In this document: positions 11,563 through 24,806 of the stretch, piece after piece
Numbering within the stretch: position 1 is the first letter of the stretch
How the letters are laid out: every line of letters starts with the position of its first letter
Sequence record: MT129652.1
Length of the DNA: 64,000 nucleotides
Strand: one strand, 5' to 3'
Source of the DNA: Escherichia phage MN01
Position numbers and translations under genes: made by a program
Notes under the pieces: generated by a model
What the model was told of the DNA's origin: nothing
The model's database searches: none
What the model saw: the letters and a program-made list of their open reading frames with translations, nothing else

Positions 11563-11787
11563 ATGTTTAATGAAGATTGTGTAACCACTTCCCTGACCGC
11601 TGAAGAGTTTTGGGATACTGCTGAAAGTGATAAAGTGATTGTGAAGAAAAACATCAATGAATTTCTTTGCACCACTGATATCATTTATGTGTATGCAGAC
11701 AAAGACGCAGAACTACCTAGCTATGCACTGTTCCGCGAAGAATCAGAAAATGGTACAGATTTTTGGAAGGAGATTTATAATGTCTAA
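11563..11787 (+). CDS. hypothetical protein (74 aa)
   Basis: ORF in track with GAGGAGA SD; overlaps next start. Confidence 0.35.
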   Translation: MFNEDCVTTSLTAEEFWDTAESDKVIVKKNINEFLCTTDIIYVYADKDAELPSYALFREESENGTDFWKEIYNV

Positions 11788-12151
11788 ATTTGAAACTGAT
11801 AAGTGGTATTATTTTAAAGATAATGTTGCTGAAAGCAGATTCCGTTTGTTATGCTCTGATAATGATAATATAGCCAATGCTATAATCAATGGCGAGGGAT
11901 TTAGACCAGTCAGAATTGAAGATGGTGATGTGTATAAAATGGAATTATCAACTGGTGAATTTGTGAGCCTATTCATAAAGGAAGATGAATTCCGTTTCTT
12001 TGAAGAAGAAAAAGATGACGATACTGAAGATGAATGCGAAGACGCAGCTCCATCTGAGCCAAGCGAATTCCCTTTGACTAAAATCACCATCTCTAATAAC
12101 TCCGAAGCCTGGACCGTTTACCAGATGTTGAAAGCACACTTTAAGGAATAA
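11780..12151 (+). CDS. hypothetical acidic protein (123 aa)
   Basis: Internal ATG of track ORF 11657-12151 preceded by GGAAGGAGA SD; Asp/Glu-rich segment. Confidence 0.4.
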   Translation: MSKFETDKWYYFKDNVAESRFRLLCSDNDNIANAIINGEGFRPVRIEDGDVYKMELSTGEFVSLFIKEDEFRFFEEEKDDDTEDECEDAAPSEPSEFPLTKITISNNSEAWTVYQMLKAHFKE

Positions 12152-12335: not shown

Positions 12336-12596
12336 ATGAAATACATTAATCGTTCTATTGCCGCGCTGGTGCTGGCGGTTTCATTGGCTGGTTGTACTGA
12401 TGCAGATAACGCCATTCGTGTATTAGATGCAAACGGCTATGAGCAAATCCAAATCACCGGTTATAACTGGTTGGGTTGCTCTGAAGATGATTTTCAGCAT
12501 ACTGGTTTTACAGCCGTAGGCCCAACTGGTAAGAAAGTTAAAGGAACTGTTTGTTCTGGTTTGCTGTTTAAGAATTCAACCATCCGATTTGAATGA
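12336..12596 (+). CDS. small lipoprotein (86 aa)
   Basis: Signal peptide with lipobox LAGC. Confidence 0.5.
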   Translation: MKYINRSIAALVLAVSLAGCTDADNAIRVLDANGYEQIQITGYNWLGCSEDDFQHTGFTAVGPTGKKVKGTVCSGLLFKNSTIRFE

Positions 12597-12603
12597 GGCT
12601 ATT

Positions 12604-13008
12604 ATGTTTAAAATTGGAAAGAGTTATTGCATTAAAGATTTAGATGGCTTCCTTAAACATGTCGGTATGCCCGGTAGCATTTTGAACCAACAAGGAACCT
12701 CTATTATTGATTTGGTTACTACCAAAGAGTTTTCAGTCACTAAGATGGAAGCAAATGTTGTTACGGAATTTAGTACTATCGATGGAACTGGATTTTCTTT
12801 CCATAGTCGTAATGGAACCGGTCTTATTTTTGGTGATGAATTTAAATATTTTGAAGAAACCCCGATAAAGGAATGTGATTCTGAAATAACCGAACAGGAA
12901 TCAAAAGAGGATATCGTTGTTACCGGTGGCGATGTTATTATTACGGTTAAAACTGAAGTCGGACGCCTACAAGCTATTAAAATGTTAGAGCAGCTTCGAT
13001 TCAAATAA
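12604..13008 (+). CDS. hypothetical protein (134 aa)
   Basis: First ATG in frame after a GAGG SD; the track's upstream start is a TTG. Confidence 0.4.
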   Translation: MFKIGKSYCIKDLDGFLKHVGMPGSILNQQGTSIIDLVTTKEFSVTKMEANVVTEFSTIDGTGFSFHSRNGTGLIFGDEFKYFEETPIKECDSEITEQESKEDIVVTGGDVIITVKTEVGRLQAIKMLEQLRFK

Positions 13009-13029
13009 AAGGCCTTCGGGCCTTTTTGC
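13009..13029 (+). terminator. rho-independent terminator (GGCC-TTCG-GGCC + T-tract)
   Basis: UUCG tetraloop hairpin followed by TTTTT. Confidence 0.55.
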
Positions 13030-13073
13030 TTTAAAATATGTGACTTATAATACCTCCATACACAAGAGGAAAG

Positions 13074-14906
13074 ATGATGATTAATAATGAAATTAAAGTA
13101 CTCTCGGACGTTGAGCATATCAAAAAACGTTCCGGGATGTATATTGGTTCCAGTTCAAATGAAGCGCATGAGCGATTCTTGTTTGGTGAATATAAGTCCG
13201 TAAGCTATGTTCCTGGTATTGTAAAACTGATTGATGAAATTATCGATAACTCTGTTGATGAAGCAATTCGCACCAGTTTTAAATTTGCCAATAAAATTGA
13301 TGTCCAAATTAAAGATAATCAGATTTCGGTTTCCGATAATGGCCGTGGTATTCCACAGGCAATGGTTACAGACCAAAACGGTGAACAAATCCCTGGCCCT
13401 GTTGCAGCATGGACTATTCCAAAAGCTGGTGGTAACTTCGGCGATGATGCTGAACGTAAAACTGGCGGGATGAACGGCGTCGGGTCTTCTCTGACCAATA
13501 TTTTCTCTGTATTGTTTACCGGGATTACCGCTGATGGTGCAAATGAAATCACCGTTAACTGCTCCAATGGTATGGAAAACAAATGTTGGTCGACTAAGAA
13601 ATCAAAAGGTAAAGGTACGACTGTTATATTTATTCCAGACTTTAGTCACTTTGAAGAAAATAGTCTGTCCCAGATTTATCTGGATATTACATTGGACCGT
13701 CTGCAGACTCTTGCGGTTGTTTATCCGGATATTCAGTTTACCTTTAATGGTAAAAAGGTTGATGGTAATTTCAAAAAGTTTGCCAAGCAATTCGGAACCG
13801 AAGTTGTTATCCAGGAAACTGATACAGTATCGATGGCCTTTACGACTAGTCCGGATGGTTTCCGTCAGTTGACTTATGTCAACAACATTCATACAAAGAA
13901 TGGTGGGCACCACGTTGAATGTGTTATGGATGATATCTGTGAACATCTTCAACCAGCCATTAAACGCAAATATAAAGGCATTGAGGTGACCAAGGCACGA
14001 GTTAAAGAATGTCTCACCATGCTTATGTTCATCCGCGATATGAGCAACATGCGATTTGATTCCCAGACTAAGGAGCGATTGACTTCTCCGGCTGGTGAAA
14101 TTCGAAATCACATTAAGATTGATGCCAAGAAAATCGCGCAAGCTATTCTGAAAAATGAACCGCTGATTATGCCGATTGTTGAAGCTGCATTAGCCCGTAA
14201 ATTGGCAGCAGAGAAAGCAGCAGAGACAAAGGCGAATAAGAAAGCTTCGAAGGCCAAGGTGCAGAAACATATCAAGGCAAACGAATGGGGTAATGATAAA
14301 CTGGAAACGACTCTGTTCCTGACCGAAGGTGATTCCGCAACCGGTCCATTTATCAAGGTTCGCGACCGTGAATTGCAAGGTGCTTATCCGTTACGCGGTA
14401 AGTTCAAAAACACATGGGGTCTGAAAGCTGTTGACGTTATGAAGAACGCCGAAGCCTTTGATGTGTGTGCGATTACTGGTTTAACGATTGGACAACCGGC
14501 CGAGAATATGAATTACCGAAACATTGCTATCATGACAGATGCGGATGTGGATGGTGTCGGTAGTATCTATCCATCGTTATTGGCGTTTTTCAGTAACTGG
14601 CCAGAGTTGTTCCATGAAGGACGAATTCGCTTTGTGAAAACTCCTGTTATTATTGCGCAGCTCAAAGATAAACAAGAATGGTTCTATTCTCTTCCTGACT
14701 ATGAAGAAGCTAAGGATAAACTTCCGAAGCACACCATCCGATATATCAAGGGGCTTGGTTCTCTGGAAGATGCCGAGTACAAACGCGTATTGCTCGAACC
14801 GGTATTCGAAGTTGTTGAATTACCTGACAACTGGAAAGAACTGTTCGAAATGCTCTTCGGTAAAGATTCCCAGCAGCGTAAAGATTGGATGAATGCGACA
14901 CTATAA
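13074..14906 (+). CDS. 39: DNA topoisomerase II large (ATPase, GyrB-like) subunit; single ORF equivalent to T4 gp39 fused to gp60
   Basis: 610 aa; GHKL ATPase N-terminus; C-terminal 150 aa carry the gp60-type block IAIMTDAD.DG.GSIYPSLL.FFSNWPELF..GRIRFVKTPVIIAQ in one uninterrupted frame. Confidence 0.9.
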   Translation: MMINNEIKVLSDVEHIKKRSGMYIGSSSNEAHERFLFGEYKSVSYVPGIVKLIDEIIDNSVDEAIRTSFKFANKIDVQIKDNQISVSDNGRGIPQAMVTDQNGEQIPGPVAAWTIPKAGGNFGDDAERKTGGMNGVGSSLTNIFSVLFTGITADGANEITVNCSNGMENKCWSTKKSKGKGTTVIFIPDFSHFEENSLSQIYLDITLDRLQTLAVVYPDIQFTFNGKKVDGNFKKFAKQFGTEVVIQETDTVSMAFTTSPDGFRQLTYVNNIHTKNGGHHVECVMDDICEHLQPAIKRKYKGIEVTKARVKECLTMLMFIRDMSNMRFDSQTKERLTSPAGEIRNHIKIDAKKIAQAILKNEPLIMPIVEAALARKLAAEKAAETKANKKASKAKVQKHIKANEWGNDKLETTLFLTEGDSATGPFIKVRDRELQGAYPLRGKFKNTWGLKAVDVMKNAEAFDVCAITGLTIGQPAENMNYRNIAIMTDADVDGVGSIYPSLLAFFSNWPELFHEGRIRFVKTPVIIAQLKDKQEWFYSLPDYEEAKDKLPKHTIRYIKGLGSLEDAEYKRVLLEPVFEVVELPDNWKELFEMLFGKDSQQRKDWMNATL

Positions 14907-14911
14907 ATAGA

Positions 14912-14919
14912 TACGGGAG
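14912..14919 (+). promoter_or_regulatory. late promoter motif TATAAATA
   Basis: Exact motif followed by AGGAGA SD and a 50-aa ORF (14949-15101). Confidence 0.5.
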
Positions 14920-14948
14920 AATATTCTCCCGTCTTATAGGAGAAGTCC

Positions 14949-15101
14949 ATGAAAAAGTGGTGGGTTACGTTGTCAAATGGCGAATACGGTTATCTGTGGG
15001 CCGATACTAAACCTCTGTTTGCATCCTTTGTCACCATTATGTGCGAGACTTGGGATGGCGAATACTATACCGCATATGGGCAAGTCTATAAAGTTGAGTA
15101 G
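14949..15101 (+). CDS. small hypothetical protein (50 aa), Trp/Tyr-rich
   Basis: Self-translated; late promoter and SD upstream, terminator downstream. Confidence 0.35.
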   Translation: MKKWWVTLSNGEYGYLWADTKPLFASFVTIMCETWDGEYYTAYGQVYKVE

Positions 15102-15653: not shown

Positions 15654-17888
15654 ATGATTTTAGAAACTGAAAAGGAAACAATCCTTGGTAATGGTGCCAA
15701 GGCATCAGCATTCACAATCCAGGCATCTCCAAAGGTGTTTAAGATTCTGACCAGCGACCTTTACACAAATAAGGTGCGTGCAGTTGTTCGTGAGCTGATT
15801 ACCAATATGATTGATGCTCATATGCTCAATGGCTGTCAGGATAAATTCATTGTCCAAGCTCCTGGTGAACTGGACCCACGTTTTGTGTGTCGTGACTTTG
15901 GTCCGGGTATGAGTGATTTCCAGATTCGTGGTGATGAAAATACTCCAGGTCTGTATAACAGTTTCTTTGCATCATCCAAGGCTGAATCCAATGATTTTAT
16001 TGGTGGCTTTGGTCTGGGTTCTAAATCTCCGTTCAGTTATACAGAGACGTTTAGCCTGATTTCGTATCATGATGGCCAAGTTAATGGTTATGTCGCTTAT
16101 ATGGATGGCGATGGTCCACAGATTAAGCCGACCTTTAGCGAACCAATGAAACCCGGTGACCGTACGGGGATTGAAGTTGTTGTCCCGGTTGATAGTAATG
16201 ATTTTGGTAAGTTCCGCCACGAGATTTCATATATCATGCGCCCATTTGCTGGACTGGCTGAAGTACAAGGCGTAGGCGAAATTAATTACTTCCCGGAATT
16301 TGATGATTATTATGCTCCAGAGCGTATTGATTATAGCAGCCCAGAACGTTATGGTCTTTATGCAATTTACGGTGGAATTGTTTATCCAATTGCCGACGGT
16401 TATACAAAGAAAACCTGGATGACCGCCAAAAATGATGTTGTCTTTATTAAGTTCCCGATGGGTTCGTTGGATATTGCACCTTCTCGCGAAGCATTATCAC
16501 TGGATAAACGTACGGTCGCAAATATCGTTGAACGTATTGAATCCCTTGATAAGAAAGTCATGGAAGATGATTGTAAGAAATGGCAGGAATCAGAATGTAT
16601 CCGCCACACGTATCGCGAATTACAGAGTCTGAGTTATGAAGCTCGTAATTTTCTGAAAGCTCGTAATGCTGAAACGAAATTTACGAAATCGCAATTGACC
16701 TTTAACCAGATGTATGAAATGTTCGAGCTGGACAAAGACCTTATTAATGCCGGGGTTGTCTATGATATCTATAGCACTACCCGTCTGAAACGTCTGCGTA
16801 ACTCAAGCTCGAACACGAATACTGCAAGCCTGACGAGCATGTTTGGTATTCAGAATAATACCTTGAACATTGTTATTGACGATGCTAAAGGGCGAATTGC
16901 GATGATTCGGGGCATCAGTTCAATGCTGTATGACACCAGCGCGAAAGCCAAAAAGCTCAAAGCATCTGGTAAAGTCCCGACTGTACAAGGTAGTAGTCTA
17001 TTGTTCGTTGACCCAACCAGCGAAATTCAAACACGTCTGATGGTTCAACTTCAAGAACGATTTAAAGGCGATACAGTTAATATCTATCGTACGTCTGAAC
17101 TGACCGCCCTTGTAAAAGACTGGATTCCGGTTGCTGACCCGAAAGCGCGCGTTAAGTCAAAGACTCCATCATTGATTCGTTGGACTAAAACTAATGGCAA
17201 ATGGCAGTCTGTTGAAGAATTTACATGTGCAGCTGATGCAGAGGAAATCGATGGTTATGCTGTATTCATTAACCGCAGTAGCATTTCCCCGTTGAATCAA
17301 GAATATGGCACCACGACCTTCGGGACCCAGACATTGTGTAAACTGGCAAACCTGTTGGAAATCAATGAATTCTGTGTTATTCGTCCACAGCTTCAGAAAA
17401 AGGTTACCAAGCTGGCGCAGTGTGATTGTTTGATTGAAGCTGCAGTCAATCGTTATGTGGAATTGATTGATTCAGTTGATGCGGACCAGTACATTGCCGC
17501 TTCAAGCCGTTCGCGTTATTATATTCCTATCCTGTCTGAATATGCGGAACTGAATTTTATGTTCAAGTATTTTTATGCAAAAGATGTTCAGAAAGATGTG
17601 AATACTGACTATGCCGAACTAATGCAGTTCAATAAGTTCTTTGCTTATAACGCATATAACAGTGGAACGGTTGATAAGACCATGCAGGAAACTCTGGTCC
17701 TTTGTAATAAGATTTATGACGACCTGACCAAAAACGCTTCGGTAACAAGTGATAAAATGGTTTTTGAATTTGAAAAGAATCACCCGATTGTTTCACACTT
17801 TTTATATAACCGTAACGCCATGTCAACTGAACAAGTACAGAACGTTGCTCAAATCATGAAGGCCGTGGAAGCGGCCAATAAGGAATAA
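15654..17888 (+). CDS. rIIA: rIIA (rapid-lysis / RexAB-exclusion protein, GHKL ATPase-like N-terminus)
   Basis: 744 aa (T4 725 aa); directly precedes rIIB; N-terminal ATPase-like motifs. Confidence 0.85.
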   Translation: MILETEKETILGNGAKASAFTIQASPKVFKILTSDLYTNKVRAVVRELITNMIDAHMLNGCQDKFIVQAPGELDPRFVCRDFGPGMSDFQIRGDENTPGLYNSFFASSKAESNDFIGGFGLGSKSPFSYTETFSLISYHDGQVNGYVAYMDGDGPQIKPTFSEPMKPGDRTGIEVVVPVDSNDFGKFRHEISYIMRPFAGLAEVQGVGEINYFPEFDDYYAPERIDYSSPERYGLYAIYGGIVYPIADGYTKKTWMTAKNDVVFIKFPMGSLDIAPSREALSLDKRTVANIVERIESLDKKVMEDDCKKWQESECIRHTYRELQSLSYEARNFLKARNAETKFTKSQLTFNQMYEMFELDKDLINAGVVYDIYSTTRLKRLRNSSSNTNTASLTSMFGIQNNTLNIVIDDAKGRIAMIRGISSMLYDTSAKAKKLKASGKVPTVQGSSLLFVDPTSEIQTRLMVQLQERFKGDTVNIYRTSELTALVKDWIPVADPKARVKSKTPSLIRWTKTNGKWQSVEEFTCAADAEEIDGYAVFINRSSISPLNQEYGTTTFGTQTLCKLANLLEINEFCVIRPQLQKKVTKLAQCDCLIEAAVNRYVELIDSVDADQYIAASSRSRYYIPILSEYAELNFMFKYFYAKDVQKDVNTDYAELMQFNKFFAYNAYNSGTVDKTMQETLVLCNKIYDDLTKNASVTSDKMVFEFEKNHPIVSHFLYNRNAMSTEQVQNVAQIMKAVEAANKE

Positions 17889-17889
17889 T

Positions 17890-18867
17890 ATGTTTAATAT
17901 CAAATGTATGTCTAAAGCCGAACAAGCTGATGTGGTCCAGATGTATTCAACGGGCAATTATACCCAGCCTGAATTGGCAGAATATTTTGCTGTGTCCGTT
18001 GACACCATTCGCCGCGTTTTGAAAAATGATAAAGAATCAAAATTAGCTAGAACCATTTCCGCATCACTGAAAGCAGCTGTTGGTGTGGCGATTAATGCTC
18101 CGGTGACAGTAACGGTTGAAGTCCCGGTTGCTGATACAATCGGCGGTAGCCGCCCGGAAATCGTATGGAACGCATCAAGCAAATTCGTTTCCATCACCGA
18201 AGGCCGCACGGTCTGGAACGCAACAAAAGACCATAAACACTTTGATGATATTATTCAGGCATTGATTGAATTCCGGTATGAAGATGCTATCGAGTTTATC
18301 TCTATCAAAGCTGCAGTGCAAAAATATGTGAAAGGTGATGTGCGTATTGAAGGTGGTAGCCTGTTCTATCAGGGAATTGAACTGCGCTCTGGTTTGGTTA
18401 CTCGTATCATCGATTCAATGCAAAATGGCGAAGACTTTGAATTCTATCTGCCATTCCTTGAAAATCTCCTTGAGAACCCGAGTGAGAAAGCTGTACAGCG
18501 TTTGTTTGACTTCTTGGTTGCTAACGATATCGAAATCACCGAAGATGGCCATTTCATCGCCTGGAAAATGGTTCGTTCAACCTACAAAGATTGCCACTCA
18601 AATACATTCGACAACAGCCCTGGTCAATATGTTAAAATGCCGCGCTCTCGTGTGAATGACAATGACGAACAGACCTGTTCAACTGGGCTGCACGTTTGTT
18701 CTAAAGGTTATATCGGAAGTGGCTTTGGTCATGGTGATGGGCGCATCGTATCCTGTAAAGTTCACCCGCGCGATGTTGTAAGCATCCCGGTGGATTATTC
18801 CGATAGTAAGATGAGGGTTTGCGGTTACCTGGTTCTTGAAGATGTGACCGAACGTTTCAATGATTAA
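17890..18867 (+). CDS. rIIB: rIIB
   Basis: 325 aa (T4 312 aa); immediately follows rIIA with a 1-nt gap. Confidence 0.85.
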   Translation: MFNIKCMSKAEQADVVQMYSTGNYTQPELAEYFAVSVDTIRRVLKNDKESKLARTISASLKAAVGVAINAPVTVTVEVPVADTIGGSRPEIVWNASSKFVSITEGRTVWNATKDHKHFDDIIQALIEFRYEDAIEFISIKAAVQKYVKGDVRIEGGSLFYQGIELRSGLVTRIIDSMQNGEDFEFYLPFLENLLENPSEKAVQRLFDFLVANDIEITEDGHFIAWKMVRSTYKDCHSNTFDNSPGQYVKMPRSRVNDNDEQTCSTGLHVCSKGYIGSGFGHGDGRIVSCKVHPRDVVSIPVDYSDSKMRVCGYLVLEDVTERFND

Positions 18868-19351
18868 ACAAACAATTGCTAAAGATGGCTCGGCTCGTGG
18901 TATTGTCCACGGGCTAGGTCACACGCCTGAATACATTGTATGGATTGGCATGAAAGCTCGGTGTTGCAATCCAACACATATTAGTTATTCTCGATATGGC
19001 GGTCGGGGTATCACTGTTTGCGATGAATGGCTGCATGATTTTGAAAGATTTTATACAGATATGGGGCCACGACCCACTGACAAACATCAACTTGACCGAA
19101 CAGATAACGATAAAGGGTACTCTCCCGATAACTGCAGATGGGTTAGTCCAGGCGAGAATGCTTTAAATAAGCGCCCGTATAATAACAACAAGTCTGGATT
19201 TAAAGGAGTCTCGTTTGATAAACGAGCTTTGAATAAACCATGGCGAGCCACTATTATGCGAAATAAAAAACAAATTCAAGTCGGAGCTTTTGCAACTCCA
19301 GAAGAAGCAAATGAAGCTCGATTAAAATATATGGAAGAACACAATGTCTAA
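18860..19351 (+). CDS. HNH-family (HNH_3-like) endonuclease with C-terminal AP2 DNA-binding domain
   Basis: 163 aa; EYIVWIGMKARCCNP...GGRGI.VCDEW N-terminal block, LDRTDNDKGYSPDNCRWVSPGENALNKR HNH-like core, GFKGVSFDKRALNKPWRATIMRNKKQIQVGAFATPEEA AP2 motif; start overlaps the rIIB stop. Confidence 0.7.
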   Translation: MIKQTIAKDGSARGIVHGLGHTPEYIVWIGMKARCCNPTHISYSRYGGRGITVCDEWLHDFERFYTDMGPRPTDKHQLDRTDNDKGYSPDNCRWVSPGENALNKRPYNNNKSGFKGVSFDKRALNKPWRATIMRNKKQIQVGAFATPEEANEARLKYMEEHNV

Positions 19352-23426: not shown

Positions 23427-24806
23427 ATGTCTGACGTTTTAAGTATGATGTCCAAACAGTTCAGTGATTCTATGGGGACCCTTAACCCACGCAGTTTAAA
23501 AGACATTATTGATGTGGAAGCATTGTCATATGCTATCTACACTGTGGAAGGTCGTGCCATCCCAAACATGATTGATGGTTTTAAACCAGTTCACAGATTT
23601 GTTATGGCGAGAGCATTAGACCTGGCTCGCGGTGATAAGAATAAATTCCATAAGGTTGCATCCATCGCAGGGGGCGTAGCTGATTATGGTTATCACCATG
23701 GCGAAGCATCAGCGGAAGAAGCAACTTCTGGTCTGGTCGCAACATATAAAAATGAATATCCTATGTTTGATGGGCAAGGTAACTTTGGTTCCAGAATGGT
23801 TCCAGAAGCATCATCAGCTCGTTATGTATTCGCAAGGGTTTCAAAGAACTTTTACAACCTGTTTAAGGATACAGAATATGCTCCGGTCCATCCTGATGAA
23901 GAACATAAGCCTCCTGCTTTTTATCTTCCTGTTATTCCTACTGTATTACTTAACGCCACTTCTGGGATTGCTGTTGGCTTTGCTACTGATATCCTTCCTC
24001 ATTCGTTCCAGGACGTCAAGGAAGCTGTTAAAGCTATCGTGGAAGGTCGTGAGCCGGTTGCTCCGAAAGTAAAATATCCAGAATTCCGTGGTAAAGTTGT
24101 TGAGCTGGAAGAGCCCGGTAAGTATGAACTTCATGGCACGTACAAAATGACCTCCAGGACTCAAATGGAAATTACTGAAATCCCAGTTCAATGGAACCTG
24201 GAAAAGTATACAAGTAAAATCCTGGACCCGCTGGAAGAGAAAGGTTTTATCACCTGGAAAGATAACTGCGGCGAGCATGGTTTTGGGTTTAAGATTAAAT
24301 TCCGCAAAGAATACAAGTTGGATGGCACTGAAGAAGAGAATCATGAGAAAATCATGAAAGACTTTGGTCTGATTGAGAAGCTCTCCCAGAACTTAACTGT
24401 GCTTAACCACAAAGGCAAATTGGCTGAATATACCAACACGCTTGACCTGATTCGCGATTTCGTTGATGTCCGTAAGACTTATGTTCAAGTGCGAATTGAC
24501 AGTAAGATTAAAGAAACTGAAGCGGCATTTAAACTGGCCCGGGCAAAAGTCTTCTTTATTAAAGAAGTGATTGATGGTAAGGTTGTTATCCAGGGGAAAC
24601 CTCGTAAGAAGTTGATTGAGGAGCTCCAGGCGAGTGAAATATATGGCGATTATGCAGAGAAGTTAGTGGCGATGAACATCTACCATATGACCTCTGATGA
24701 AGCTAAGAAGCTTGCGGATGAAGCTAAGGCTAAGAAAGCTGAGCATGAGTACTGGAAGACAACTGACGTTAAAACTGAATACCTTAATGATTTGGAGGCT
24801 CTATGA
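23427..24806 (+). CDS. 52: DNA topoisomerase II medium (GyrA-like, DNA-cleaving) subunit gp52
   Basis: 459 aa (T4 442 aa); N-terminal winged-helix/catalytic region DGFKPVHRF...ASIAGGVADYGYHHGEAS similar to T4 gp52. Confidence 0.9.
   Translation: MSDVLSMMSKQFSDSMGTLNPRSLKDIIDVEALSYAIYTVEGRAIPNMIDGFKPVHRFVMARALDLARGDKNKFHKVASIAGGVADYGYHHGEASAEEATSGLVATYKNEYPMFDGQGNFGSRMVPEASSARYVFARVSKNFYNLFKDTEYAPVHPDEEHKPPAFYLPVIPTVLLNATSGIAVGFATDILPHSFQDVKEAVKAIVEGREPVAPKVKYPEFRGKVVELEEPGKYELHGTYKMTSRTQMEITEIPVQWNLEKYTSKILDPLEEKGFITWKDNCGEHGFGFKIKFRKEYKLDGTEEENHEKIMKDFGLIEKLSQNLTVLNHKGKLAEYTNTLDLIRDFVDVRKTYVQVRIDSKIKETEAAFKLARAKVFFIKEVIDGKVVIQGKPRKKLIEELQASEIYGDYAEKLVAMNIYHMTSDEAKKLADEAKAKKAEHEYWKTTDVKTEYLNDLEAL

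Follow-up and report, generated by a model that had tools for sequence, protein, structure and literature searches.

Positions 13074-14906 of the Escherichia phage MN01 sequence analysed here (64,000 nucleotides of MT129652.1, hereafter the window) hold, with a probability of about 96%, a never-interrupted ("parental", empty-site) gene 39 encoding the GyrB-like large subunit of topoisomerase II in an SP18-like (Gaprivervirus-type) T-even phage. The reading frame is continuous, homologous to and colinear with the gp39 of its relatives, contains no sequence of the mobile element that interrupts the gene in T4, and retains its motifs; it is under purifying selection, and the partner subunit gp52 is encoded in the same genome. 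No observation in this analysis speaks against that reading. The gene is an ordinary one, well annotated and already known, in its usual form.

Gene 39, its product and its neighbourhood

The listing of ORFs gives a single plus-strand frame of 610 amino acids that begins with ATG; its residues 484-513 are the peptide IAIMTDADVDGVGSIYPSLLAFFSNWPELF quoted in the first-pass annotation. A second ATG at 13077 may be the true start, giving 609 amino acids, since it is the one that aligns with the annotated start in T4 and T6; in T4 the corresponding codons are GTG-ATG, and the annotated gene begins with the second of them. PHROG 543 ("DNA topoisomerase II large subunit") covers the product over its full length (E=2.6e-279), while PHROG 7229, the gp60-type family, matches residues 455-608 (E=3.7e-60). 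Neither GC content nor skew shows a discontinuity across the gene. Features of the gene, its upstream region and its partner are collected in Table 1.

Table 1. Positions in the window of gene 39, its domains and motifs, the empty site, the upstream elements and gene 52 (aa, residues of the gene 39 product)
Feature	Position	Strand	Evidence
Gene 39, uninterrupted topoisomerase II large (GyrB-like) subunit	13074..14906	+	ORF, PHROG 543, SP18/T6 homology
Hairpin AAAGGCC-TTCG-GGCCTTT	13008-13025	+	direct reading; identical in T4 and T6
MotA-box-like TGCTTTA, 12-nt spacer, TATAAT	13027-13033 (TGCTTTA), 13046-13051 (TATAAT)	+	direct reading; box/-10 arrangement conserved with T4/T6
RBS GAGG, followed by ATGs at 13074 and 13077	13066-13069	+	direct reading
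T4 gp39-equivalent part, aa 2-476	13077..14501	+	BLASTP against gp39 1-473, 350/475, 74% identity, E=0
T4 gp60-equivalent part, aa 476-607	14499..14894	+	BLASTP against gp60 28-159 (bypass removed), 92/132, 70%, E=7e-70
GHKL ATPase domain, aa 50-190	13221..13643	+	Pfam HATPase_c, E=2.1e-10
Transducer domain, aa 251-386	13824..14231	+	Pfam DNA_gyraseB, E=4.2e-15
QTK loop, aa 331-333	14064-14072	+	motif scan
Toprim catalytic glutamate motif EGDSA, aa 418-422	14325..14339	+	motif scan, T2/T6 alignment
Toprim metal-binding DxDxD (DADVD), aa 489-493	14538..14552	+	motif scan, alignment, DNA read directly
Codon G494 GGT, equivalent of T4 gene 60 take-off codon Gly46 (GGA)	14553..14555	+	sequence read, alignment
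Intact 64-nt empty site (stretch replaced by the ~1.1-kb MobA element in T4-clade phages)	14501..14564	+	four-way nucleotide alignment
TOPRIM_C (TOPRIM-associated C-terminal domain), aa 523-608	14640..14897	+	Pfam, E=9e-9
Gene 52, topoisomerase II medium (GyrA-like, DNA-cleavage) subunit	23427..24806	+	PHROG 551, E=9.3e-202; Pfam DNA_topoisoIV, E=4e-77

The GHKL domain has the catalytic Glu and Mg-binding Asn (E55 and N59 in EIIDN, nt 13236-13250), the adenine-binding Asp (D88 in DNGRGIP, aa 88-94) and the glycine-rich ATP lid (G-loop GGMNGVG, aa 131-137, from motif scan and alignment) of a B-type subunit of a type IIA topoisomerase, and the QTK loop is that of a B-type transducer. The sequence around this loop is NMRFDSQTK in the window, T2 and T6, and NMRLIRQTK in the T4 RefSeq gp39. 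The two Toprim motifs, EGDSA and DxDxD, lie on one polypeptide, as in other B-type subunits, whereas in T4 the split leaves EGDSA with gp39 and DxDxD with gp60, where it immediately precedes the bypass. The Pfam Toprim model PF01751 has no match in the product at E<=0.01, so the Toprim domain was assigned from its conserved motifs, from TOPRIM_C and from the colinearity of the region with the T6 structure. The GHKL-transducer-Toprim architecture is shared with bacterial GyrB and ParE and with the N-terminal half of eukaryotic Topo II, and structure matches include human Topo II alpha (E=4e-59) and ParE (E=3e-47); compared with GyrB, however, the gene 39 product is much shorter.

The genes around gene 39 form the canonical T-even set: upstream are a goF-like gene, 39.2 and 39.1, and downstream are three small ORFs followed by rIIA (15654-17888) and rIIB (17890-18867). 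The SP18 group has the same neighbourhood, with goF/39.2/39.1 upstream and small ORFs, rIIA.1, rIIA and rIIB downstream; over 12 kb, identity to pEC-M719-6WT.2, TH22/TH55, EAWsc9 and SP18 (Gaprivervirus) is 94-97%. The TGCTTTA and TATAAT elements are taken here, from the T4 MotA-box consensus, to be a putative middle promoter of gene 39; a generic sigma-70 and terminator scan reported neither the promoter-like element nor the hairpin upstream of the gene. The end of rIIB is overlapped by an ORF for a 163-amino acid HNH endonuclease with a weak AP2 match (18860-19351). Only five phage records contain this ORF (TH54, DCP80, two VR7 entries and phage 212); most other SP18-like phages have a deletion of about 500 bp in its place.

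Comparison with T4, T6/T2 and SP18-like phages

T4 gp39 and gp60 were taken from NC_000866, with the two gene 60 exons joined across the annotated 50-nt bypass, and compared with the window protein by BLASTP. Both halves match, and the two matches adjoin at residue 476 in one frame, gapless and free of stops. The first-pass annotation had described one ORF that carries both the GyrB-like ATPase region and a gp60-type C-terminal block, and the alignment to T4 agrees with that description. It had also put the gp60-like portion at the C-terminal 150 residues; the homology is clear, but the block is really about 135 residues long, because the first ~27-30 amino acids of T4 gp60 are element-encoded and have no counterpart here. 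The sequences found only in T4 in this comparison are those residues and the last 43 amino acids of gp39. These ends have been identified as the NTE and CTE encoded by the MobA element, not as ancestral topoisomerase sequence (bioRxiv 10.1101/2022.08.31.505936). The window thus differs from T4 in having none of the ~1.1-kb element, the 43-amino acid C-terminal extension of gp39, the ~30-amino acid N-terminal extension of gp60, or mobA/60.1. It also lacks both the GGA-UAG take-off stem-loop and the 50-nt gap of T4 gene 60.

The natural single-chain gp39 of T6 and T2 is colinear with the window protein. Residues 2-607 correspond to residues 1-604 of T6 gp39 (PDB 8ylu_C), with two single-residue indels, neither of them at or near the junction. 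T6 and T2 gp39 have the same domains, motifs and uninterrupted Toprim domain, and the window protein would pair with gp52 likewise; the differences are in identity (~74% amino acid, 71% nucleotide), in a C-terminus 2 amino acids longer, and in genus (Tequatrovirus as against Gaprivervirus-like). The topoisomerase II of T2 and of T6 consists of two subunits, gp39 and gp52, while that of T4 is the only three-subunit topoisomerase II known and has a ~70-amino acid insertion in Toprim resulting from the split (PMC11461880).

Much closer are the SP18-like phages. Amino acid identity of the gene 39 product is 99.0% to SP18 gp39 (YP_003934630, Gaprivervirus) and 99.5% to TH57 and UPEC07; in these three together with VR7, VR20 and VR25 the gene is the same, with a length of 610 amino acids and 97-99.5% identity. 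SP18 gp39 differs only by scattered, mostly synonymous substitutions (73 nucleotides, 6 amino acids). The 73 nucleotide differences fall in 73 codons, 67 of them synonymous and 6 nonsynonymous, and this balance indicates that the gene is under strong purifying selection. In a five-way protein alignment of the window, SP18, phage 212, T6 and T2, the homologue from Escherichia phage 212, which is 21 nt longer, was considered as a possible case of extra sequence at the MobA site. This was rejected, since its 7-amino acid insertion sits in the ATPase domain; the insertion lies within a mosaic patch in that domain of phage 212.

The empty site at the MobA insertion point

When the window is aligned at the nucleotide level with T6, T2 and the entire 39-mobA-60 region of T4, identity to T4 ends after 14500 (codon A476) and returns at 14565. 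The ~1.1-kb element found between these points in T4-clade phages is composed of CTE, mobA, NTE/homR, the 50-nt cassette and 9 nt, and a 64-nt deletion has been reported for clade-1 elements (bioRxiv 10.1101/2022.08.31.505936). The length of the window's empty site equals that deletion. SP18 and pEC-M719-6WT.2 share all 64 nt of the site and T2 shares 45 of them (70%), the same divergence as over the whole gene (71% at the nucleotide level).

At the T4 take-off codon Gly46, GGA is followed by UAG and the 50-nt gap. At the equivalent G494 of the window, GGT is followed immediately by GTC GGT AGT (V-G-S), all in-frame sense codons; the sequence there contains neither a stop nor a 50-nt gap, a second matched Gly landing codon is likewise absent, and the site is therefore not a bypass cassette. 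Across the junction, ITGLTIGQPAENMNYRNIAIMTDADVDGVGSIYPS of the window and ITGLVLGEKAENLNYHNIAIMTDADHDGLGSIYPS of T2/T6 are colinear residue for residue with no indel, so that a single ORF crosses the MobA site with no added residues, as in the uninterrupted T2/T6-type gene.

Relics of the element were sought by tblastn of the intact 272-amino acid RB55 MobA and of the CTE and NTE of T4 against the six frames of the window, and by blastn-short searches of the whole window for the 50-nt cassette and for the 1.1-kb element. The three protein queries gave only chance matches (best E 0.35-0.89), all outside gene 39, and the cassette gave nothing beyond chance 9-10-mers. With matches to cassette, element, MobA, CTE and NTE all at chance level in the window, the reading of a cryptic cassette was rejected. 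Neither MobA nor a replacement HNH endonuclease separates two topoisomerase ORFs here; the gene 39 frame is continuous and the window contains no MobA homologue. The earlier statement that the gene has no bypass, insertion or frameshift is upheld by the continuous frame, by colinearity with T2/T6 and by inspection of the junction, where no remnant of a mobile element was found.

Alternative readings of the uninterrupted gene

A continuous frame could also be the product of "hit and run" re-fusion, in which a MobA element once split gene 39 in this lineage and was later excised to leave one ORF. Such re-fusion is known in a clade of Aeromonas phages, but the re-fused ORFs there keep residues derived from CTE and NTE (bioRxiv 10.1101/2022.08.31.505936). 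Mobile HNH endonucleases do occur at other places in the genome, one of them at 18860-19351. However, residues 466-500 are colinear with T2/T6 and contain nothing extra, with no CTE- or NTE-like residues at the insertion site, and the CTE and NTE probes found only chance matches in the window. The constancy of the 64-nt site across SP18-like relatives and its unexceptional divergence from T2 are likewise against re-fusion, which is considered highly improbable. Had the element once invaded and the gene then been restored exactly from an uninserted relative, nothing of it would be visible now.

That the split gene or the 50-nt gap was lost or smoothed over in assembly or annotation is only a generic possibility for any single sequence, but 27 independently deposited genomes with at least 90% amino acid identity show the same unbroken gene, and the differences from SP18 and pEC-M719-6WT.2 are overwhelmingly synonymous and in frame; an artefact of this kind is scarcely credible. 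Nor does anything speak for a decaying, pseudogene-like copy that merely happens still to be open, for the catalytic motifs are all intact, purifying selection appears strong, the RBS and promoter-like context is common to T4 and T6, and gene 52 is intact. The chance that the gene is such a copy is close to negligible.

A different question is what the intact site at 14501-14564 makes of the SP18-like lineage. It includes the region reported to be nicked by MobA in T2, which lies approximately 20 nt upstream of the bypass insertion point (bioRxiv 10.1101/2022.08.31.505936). The window site is identical to T4 homR at 33 of 48 positions, compared with 35 of 48 for the known T2 target. The homR sequence alone does not block nicking by MobA, and only the bypass insert did (bioRxiv 10.1101/2022.08.31.505936). 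By analogy with T2, the window site might be susceptible to MobA, and the lineage might then be a naive, invadable target for a MobA-type element or, alternatively, one that was invaded once and precisely repaired; either is regarded as improbable, although less so than the readings above. Neither an invadable target nor a traceless repair alters what gene 39 is. If the site is invadable, Gapriverviruses could have, or come to have, a MobA/bypass element specific to their clade.

The predicted enzyme

The never-interrupted gene 39 would be translated conventionally into one polypeptide in which the GHKL ATPase and the transducer are joined to a complete Toprim domain. The cognate A-type subunit, gene 52, is present in the same genome, and the enzyme should therefore be a two-subunit topoisomerase II of the T2/T6 type, in which a gp39 dimer on a gp52 dimer would form a heterotetramer that relaxes DNA in an ATP-dependent manner. 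T4 topoisomerase II likewise relaxes DNA rather than supercoiling it. In the mechanism suggested by the T6 structures and established T4 biology, ATP binding would lead to closure of the N-gate, the Toprim/WHD centre would cut the G-segment, and the T-segment would be passed through, relaxing DNA during phage replication. Strand passage is predicted from the T6 enzyme, which has been characterised both biochemically and structurally and is ~74% identical; activity, quaternary structure and middle-promoter expression of gp39 are all expected by comparison with homologues. According to the T6 structural study, the C-terminus of gp39 takes part in the interface with gp52, and the phage enzyme has no GyrA C-terminal wrapping domain (PMC11461880). 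The TOPRIM_C region of the window protein is thus probably the part that would contact gp52.

The three-subunit enzyme of T4 is, by comparison, the derived form: the ~1.1-kb MobA homing-endonuclease element inserted inside the Toprim domain, divided the gene into 39 and 60 and carried the 50-nt bypass cassette with it. The T4 insertion is reported to be MobA-borne (bioRxiv 10.1101/2022.08.31.505936).

Frequency of the interrupted state and its meaning

Homologues of the gene 39 product were found by tblastn in 2,198 phage records, and all 27 records with at least 90% amino acid identity match in a single uninterrupted piece. A match covering at least 80% of the protein in one place was obtained in 1958 of the 2,198, but this is not taken as the number of unsplit genes because the search can join the T4 39 and 60 pieces. 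The frequency of the interrupted state was instead judged from censuses of the element and of MobA. Only 41 records, every one of them T4-like and with 95-100% identity, match 80% or more of the T4 element DNA; a few phages of Salmonella, Proteus, Acinetobacter and Shewanella have diverged matches to part of it. Coverage of the MobA protein reaches at least 80% (near full length) in 73 records. Interruption thus affects a few percent of records and occurs in no SP18-like phage among those listed.

Continuous gene 39 is the default and ancestral state. The first-pass annotation considered the continuous arrangement to be one known from some other T4-like phages; the arrangement is real, but this understates its frequency, as it is the default in the great majority of the roughly 2,200 records. 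Insertion of the element occurred independently in several clades, and inserted and uninserted genomes can be 96-99% identical in this gene, as are T4 and T2/T6 (Manning & Atkins, bioRxiv 10.1101/2022.08.31.505936). Since the continuous form is the default and the element comes and goes among near-identical Tequatroviruses, its absence says almost nothing about relatedness to T4, and the suggestion that the arrangement helps to place the phage relative to T4 is a weak one. Placement comes from sequence identity, which points to an SP18-like phage (99% at the amino acid level), with ~74% amino acid and 71% nucleotide identity to T2/T4/T6.

For annotation, the gene specifies the large subunit of a conventional two-subunit enzyme of gp39 and gp52, with no recoding to annotate, and beyond this the arrangement matters little. 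The intact 64-nt site could be used as a natural "empty-site" comparator in studies of the MobA target, although many such sequences already exist. More generally, the split gene with its bypass is recent, sporadic and borne by a mobile element, and its absence is to be expected and is unfit as a taxonomic character, a view that corrects a T4-centric bias.

Organization upstream of gene 39

The region immediately upstream of gene 39 carries a conserved block of putative regulatory signals, beginning with a hairpin (AAAGGCC-TTCG-GGCCTTT) that recurs without change in T4 and T6. Next come a MotA-box-like TGCTTTA and TATAAT, separated by a 12-nt spacer, and then the RBS GAGG; the generic scan of the window for sigma-70 promoters and terminators called neither the hairpin nor the MotA-box-like/TATAAT element of this block. 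Tandem ATG codons at 13074 and 13077 are both candidates for the start of gene 39. T4 has GTG ATG at this point while the window has ATG ATG, and because T4 is annotated from the second codon, the true product may be 609 amino acids. Farther upstream, two ORFs both match PHROG 622 and goF-like families, which suggests that 39.2 and 39.1 are flanked by a pair of goF-type genes that are duplicates or paralogues of each other.

Coordinates of features in and around gene 39
Feature	Location	Strand	Match or comparison
goF-like ORF upstream of gene 39	window 11657-12151	+	PHROG 622 / goF-like families, E=1e-30
goF-like ORF upstream of gene 39	window 12589-13008	+	PHROG 622 / goF-like families, E=9e-15
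Conserved regulatory block upstream of gene 39	window 13008-13079	+	
Perfect palindromic hairpin ACGGGAGAATATTCTCCCGT	window 14913-14932		
HNH endonuclease ORF, 163 aa	window 18860-19351	+	PHROG 374, E=8e-59
Gene 39 homologue of Escherichia phage 212	PQ765507 301-2154		compared with window 13074-14906

Variation in the gene 39 product

The phage 212 homologue is approximately 94% identical to the gene 39 product of the window (93.4% by tblastn, 94.6% by alignment). Within its ATPase domain, a locally divergent mosaic patch (amino acids ~80-210) contains a seven-amino acid insertion, KEHVKAK, while the remainder of the protein is nearly identical. A divergent patch with an insertion amid such near-identity suggests that this segment is recombinational and would derive from another T-even lineage. 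A different discrepancy directly adjoins the conserved QTK loop of the transducer domain on its upstream side: the T4 RefSeq gp39 (NC_000866) has NMRLIRQTKERL at amino acids ~326-330, in place of the NMRFDSQTKERL shared by T6, T2, and the window. The T4 sequence may be an old reference sequencing error (a compensated frameshift, for example) or a genuine T4-specific change.

Sequences 3' of gene 39

The palindromic hairpin lies 7 nt past the gene 39 stop codon, ahead of a 50-amino acid ORF (14949-15101), and was reported by the scanner only as a minus-strand terminator-like site. Beyond rIIA, the rIIB stop is overlapped by 8 nt by the HNH endonuclease ORF, in which a weak, sub-threshold Pfam AP2 match falls at amino acids 112-155. 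The complete region was found in only five phage records (TH54, DCP80, two entries for VR7 [VR7ORF292c], and phage 212), and tblastn gave no match to the ORF in pEC-M719-6WT.2, the closest relative. The 1.2-kb query matched SP18, TH57, UPEC01, PSD2001, and others in two pieces with a coverage of only 58%, so these phages lack approximately 500 bp. The ORF between rIIB and denB looks like a free-standing homing endonuclease that is polymorphic for presence or absence.
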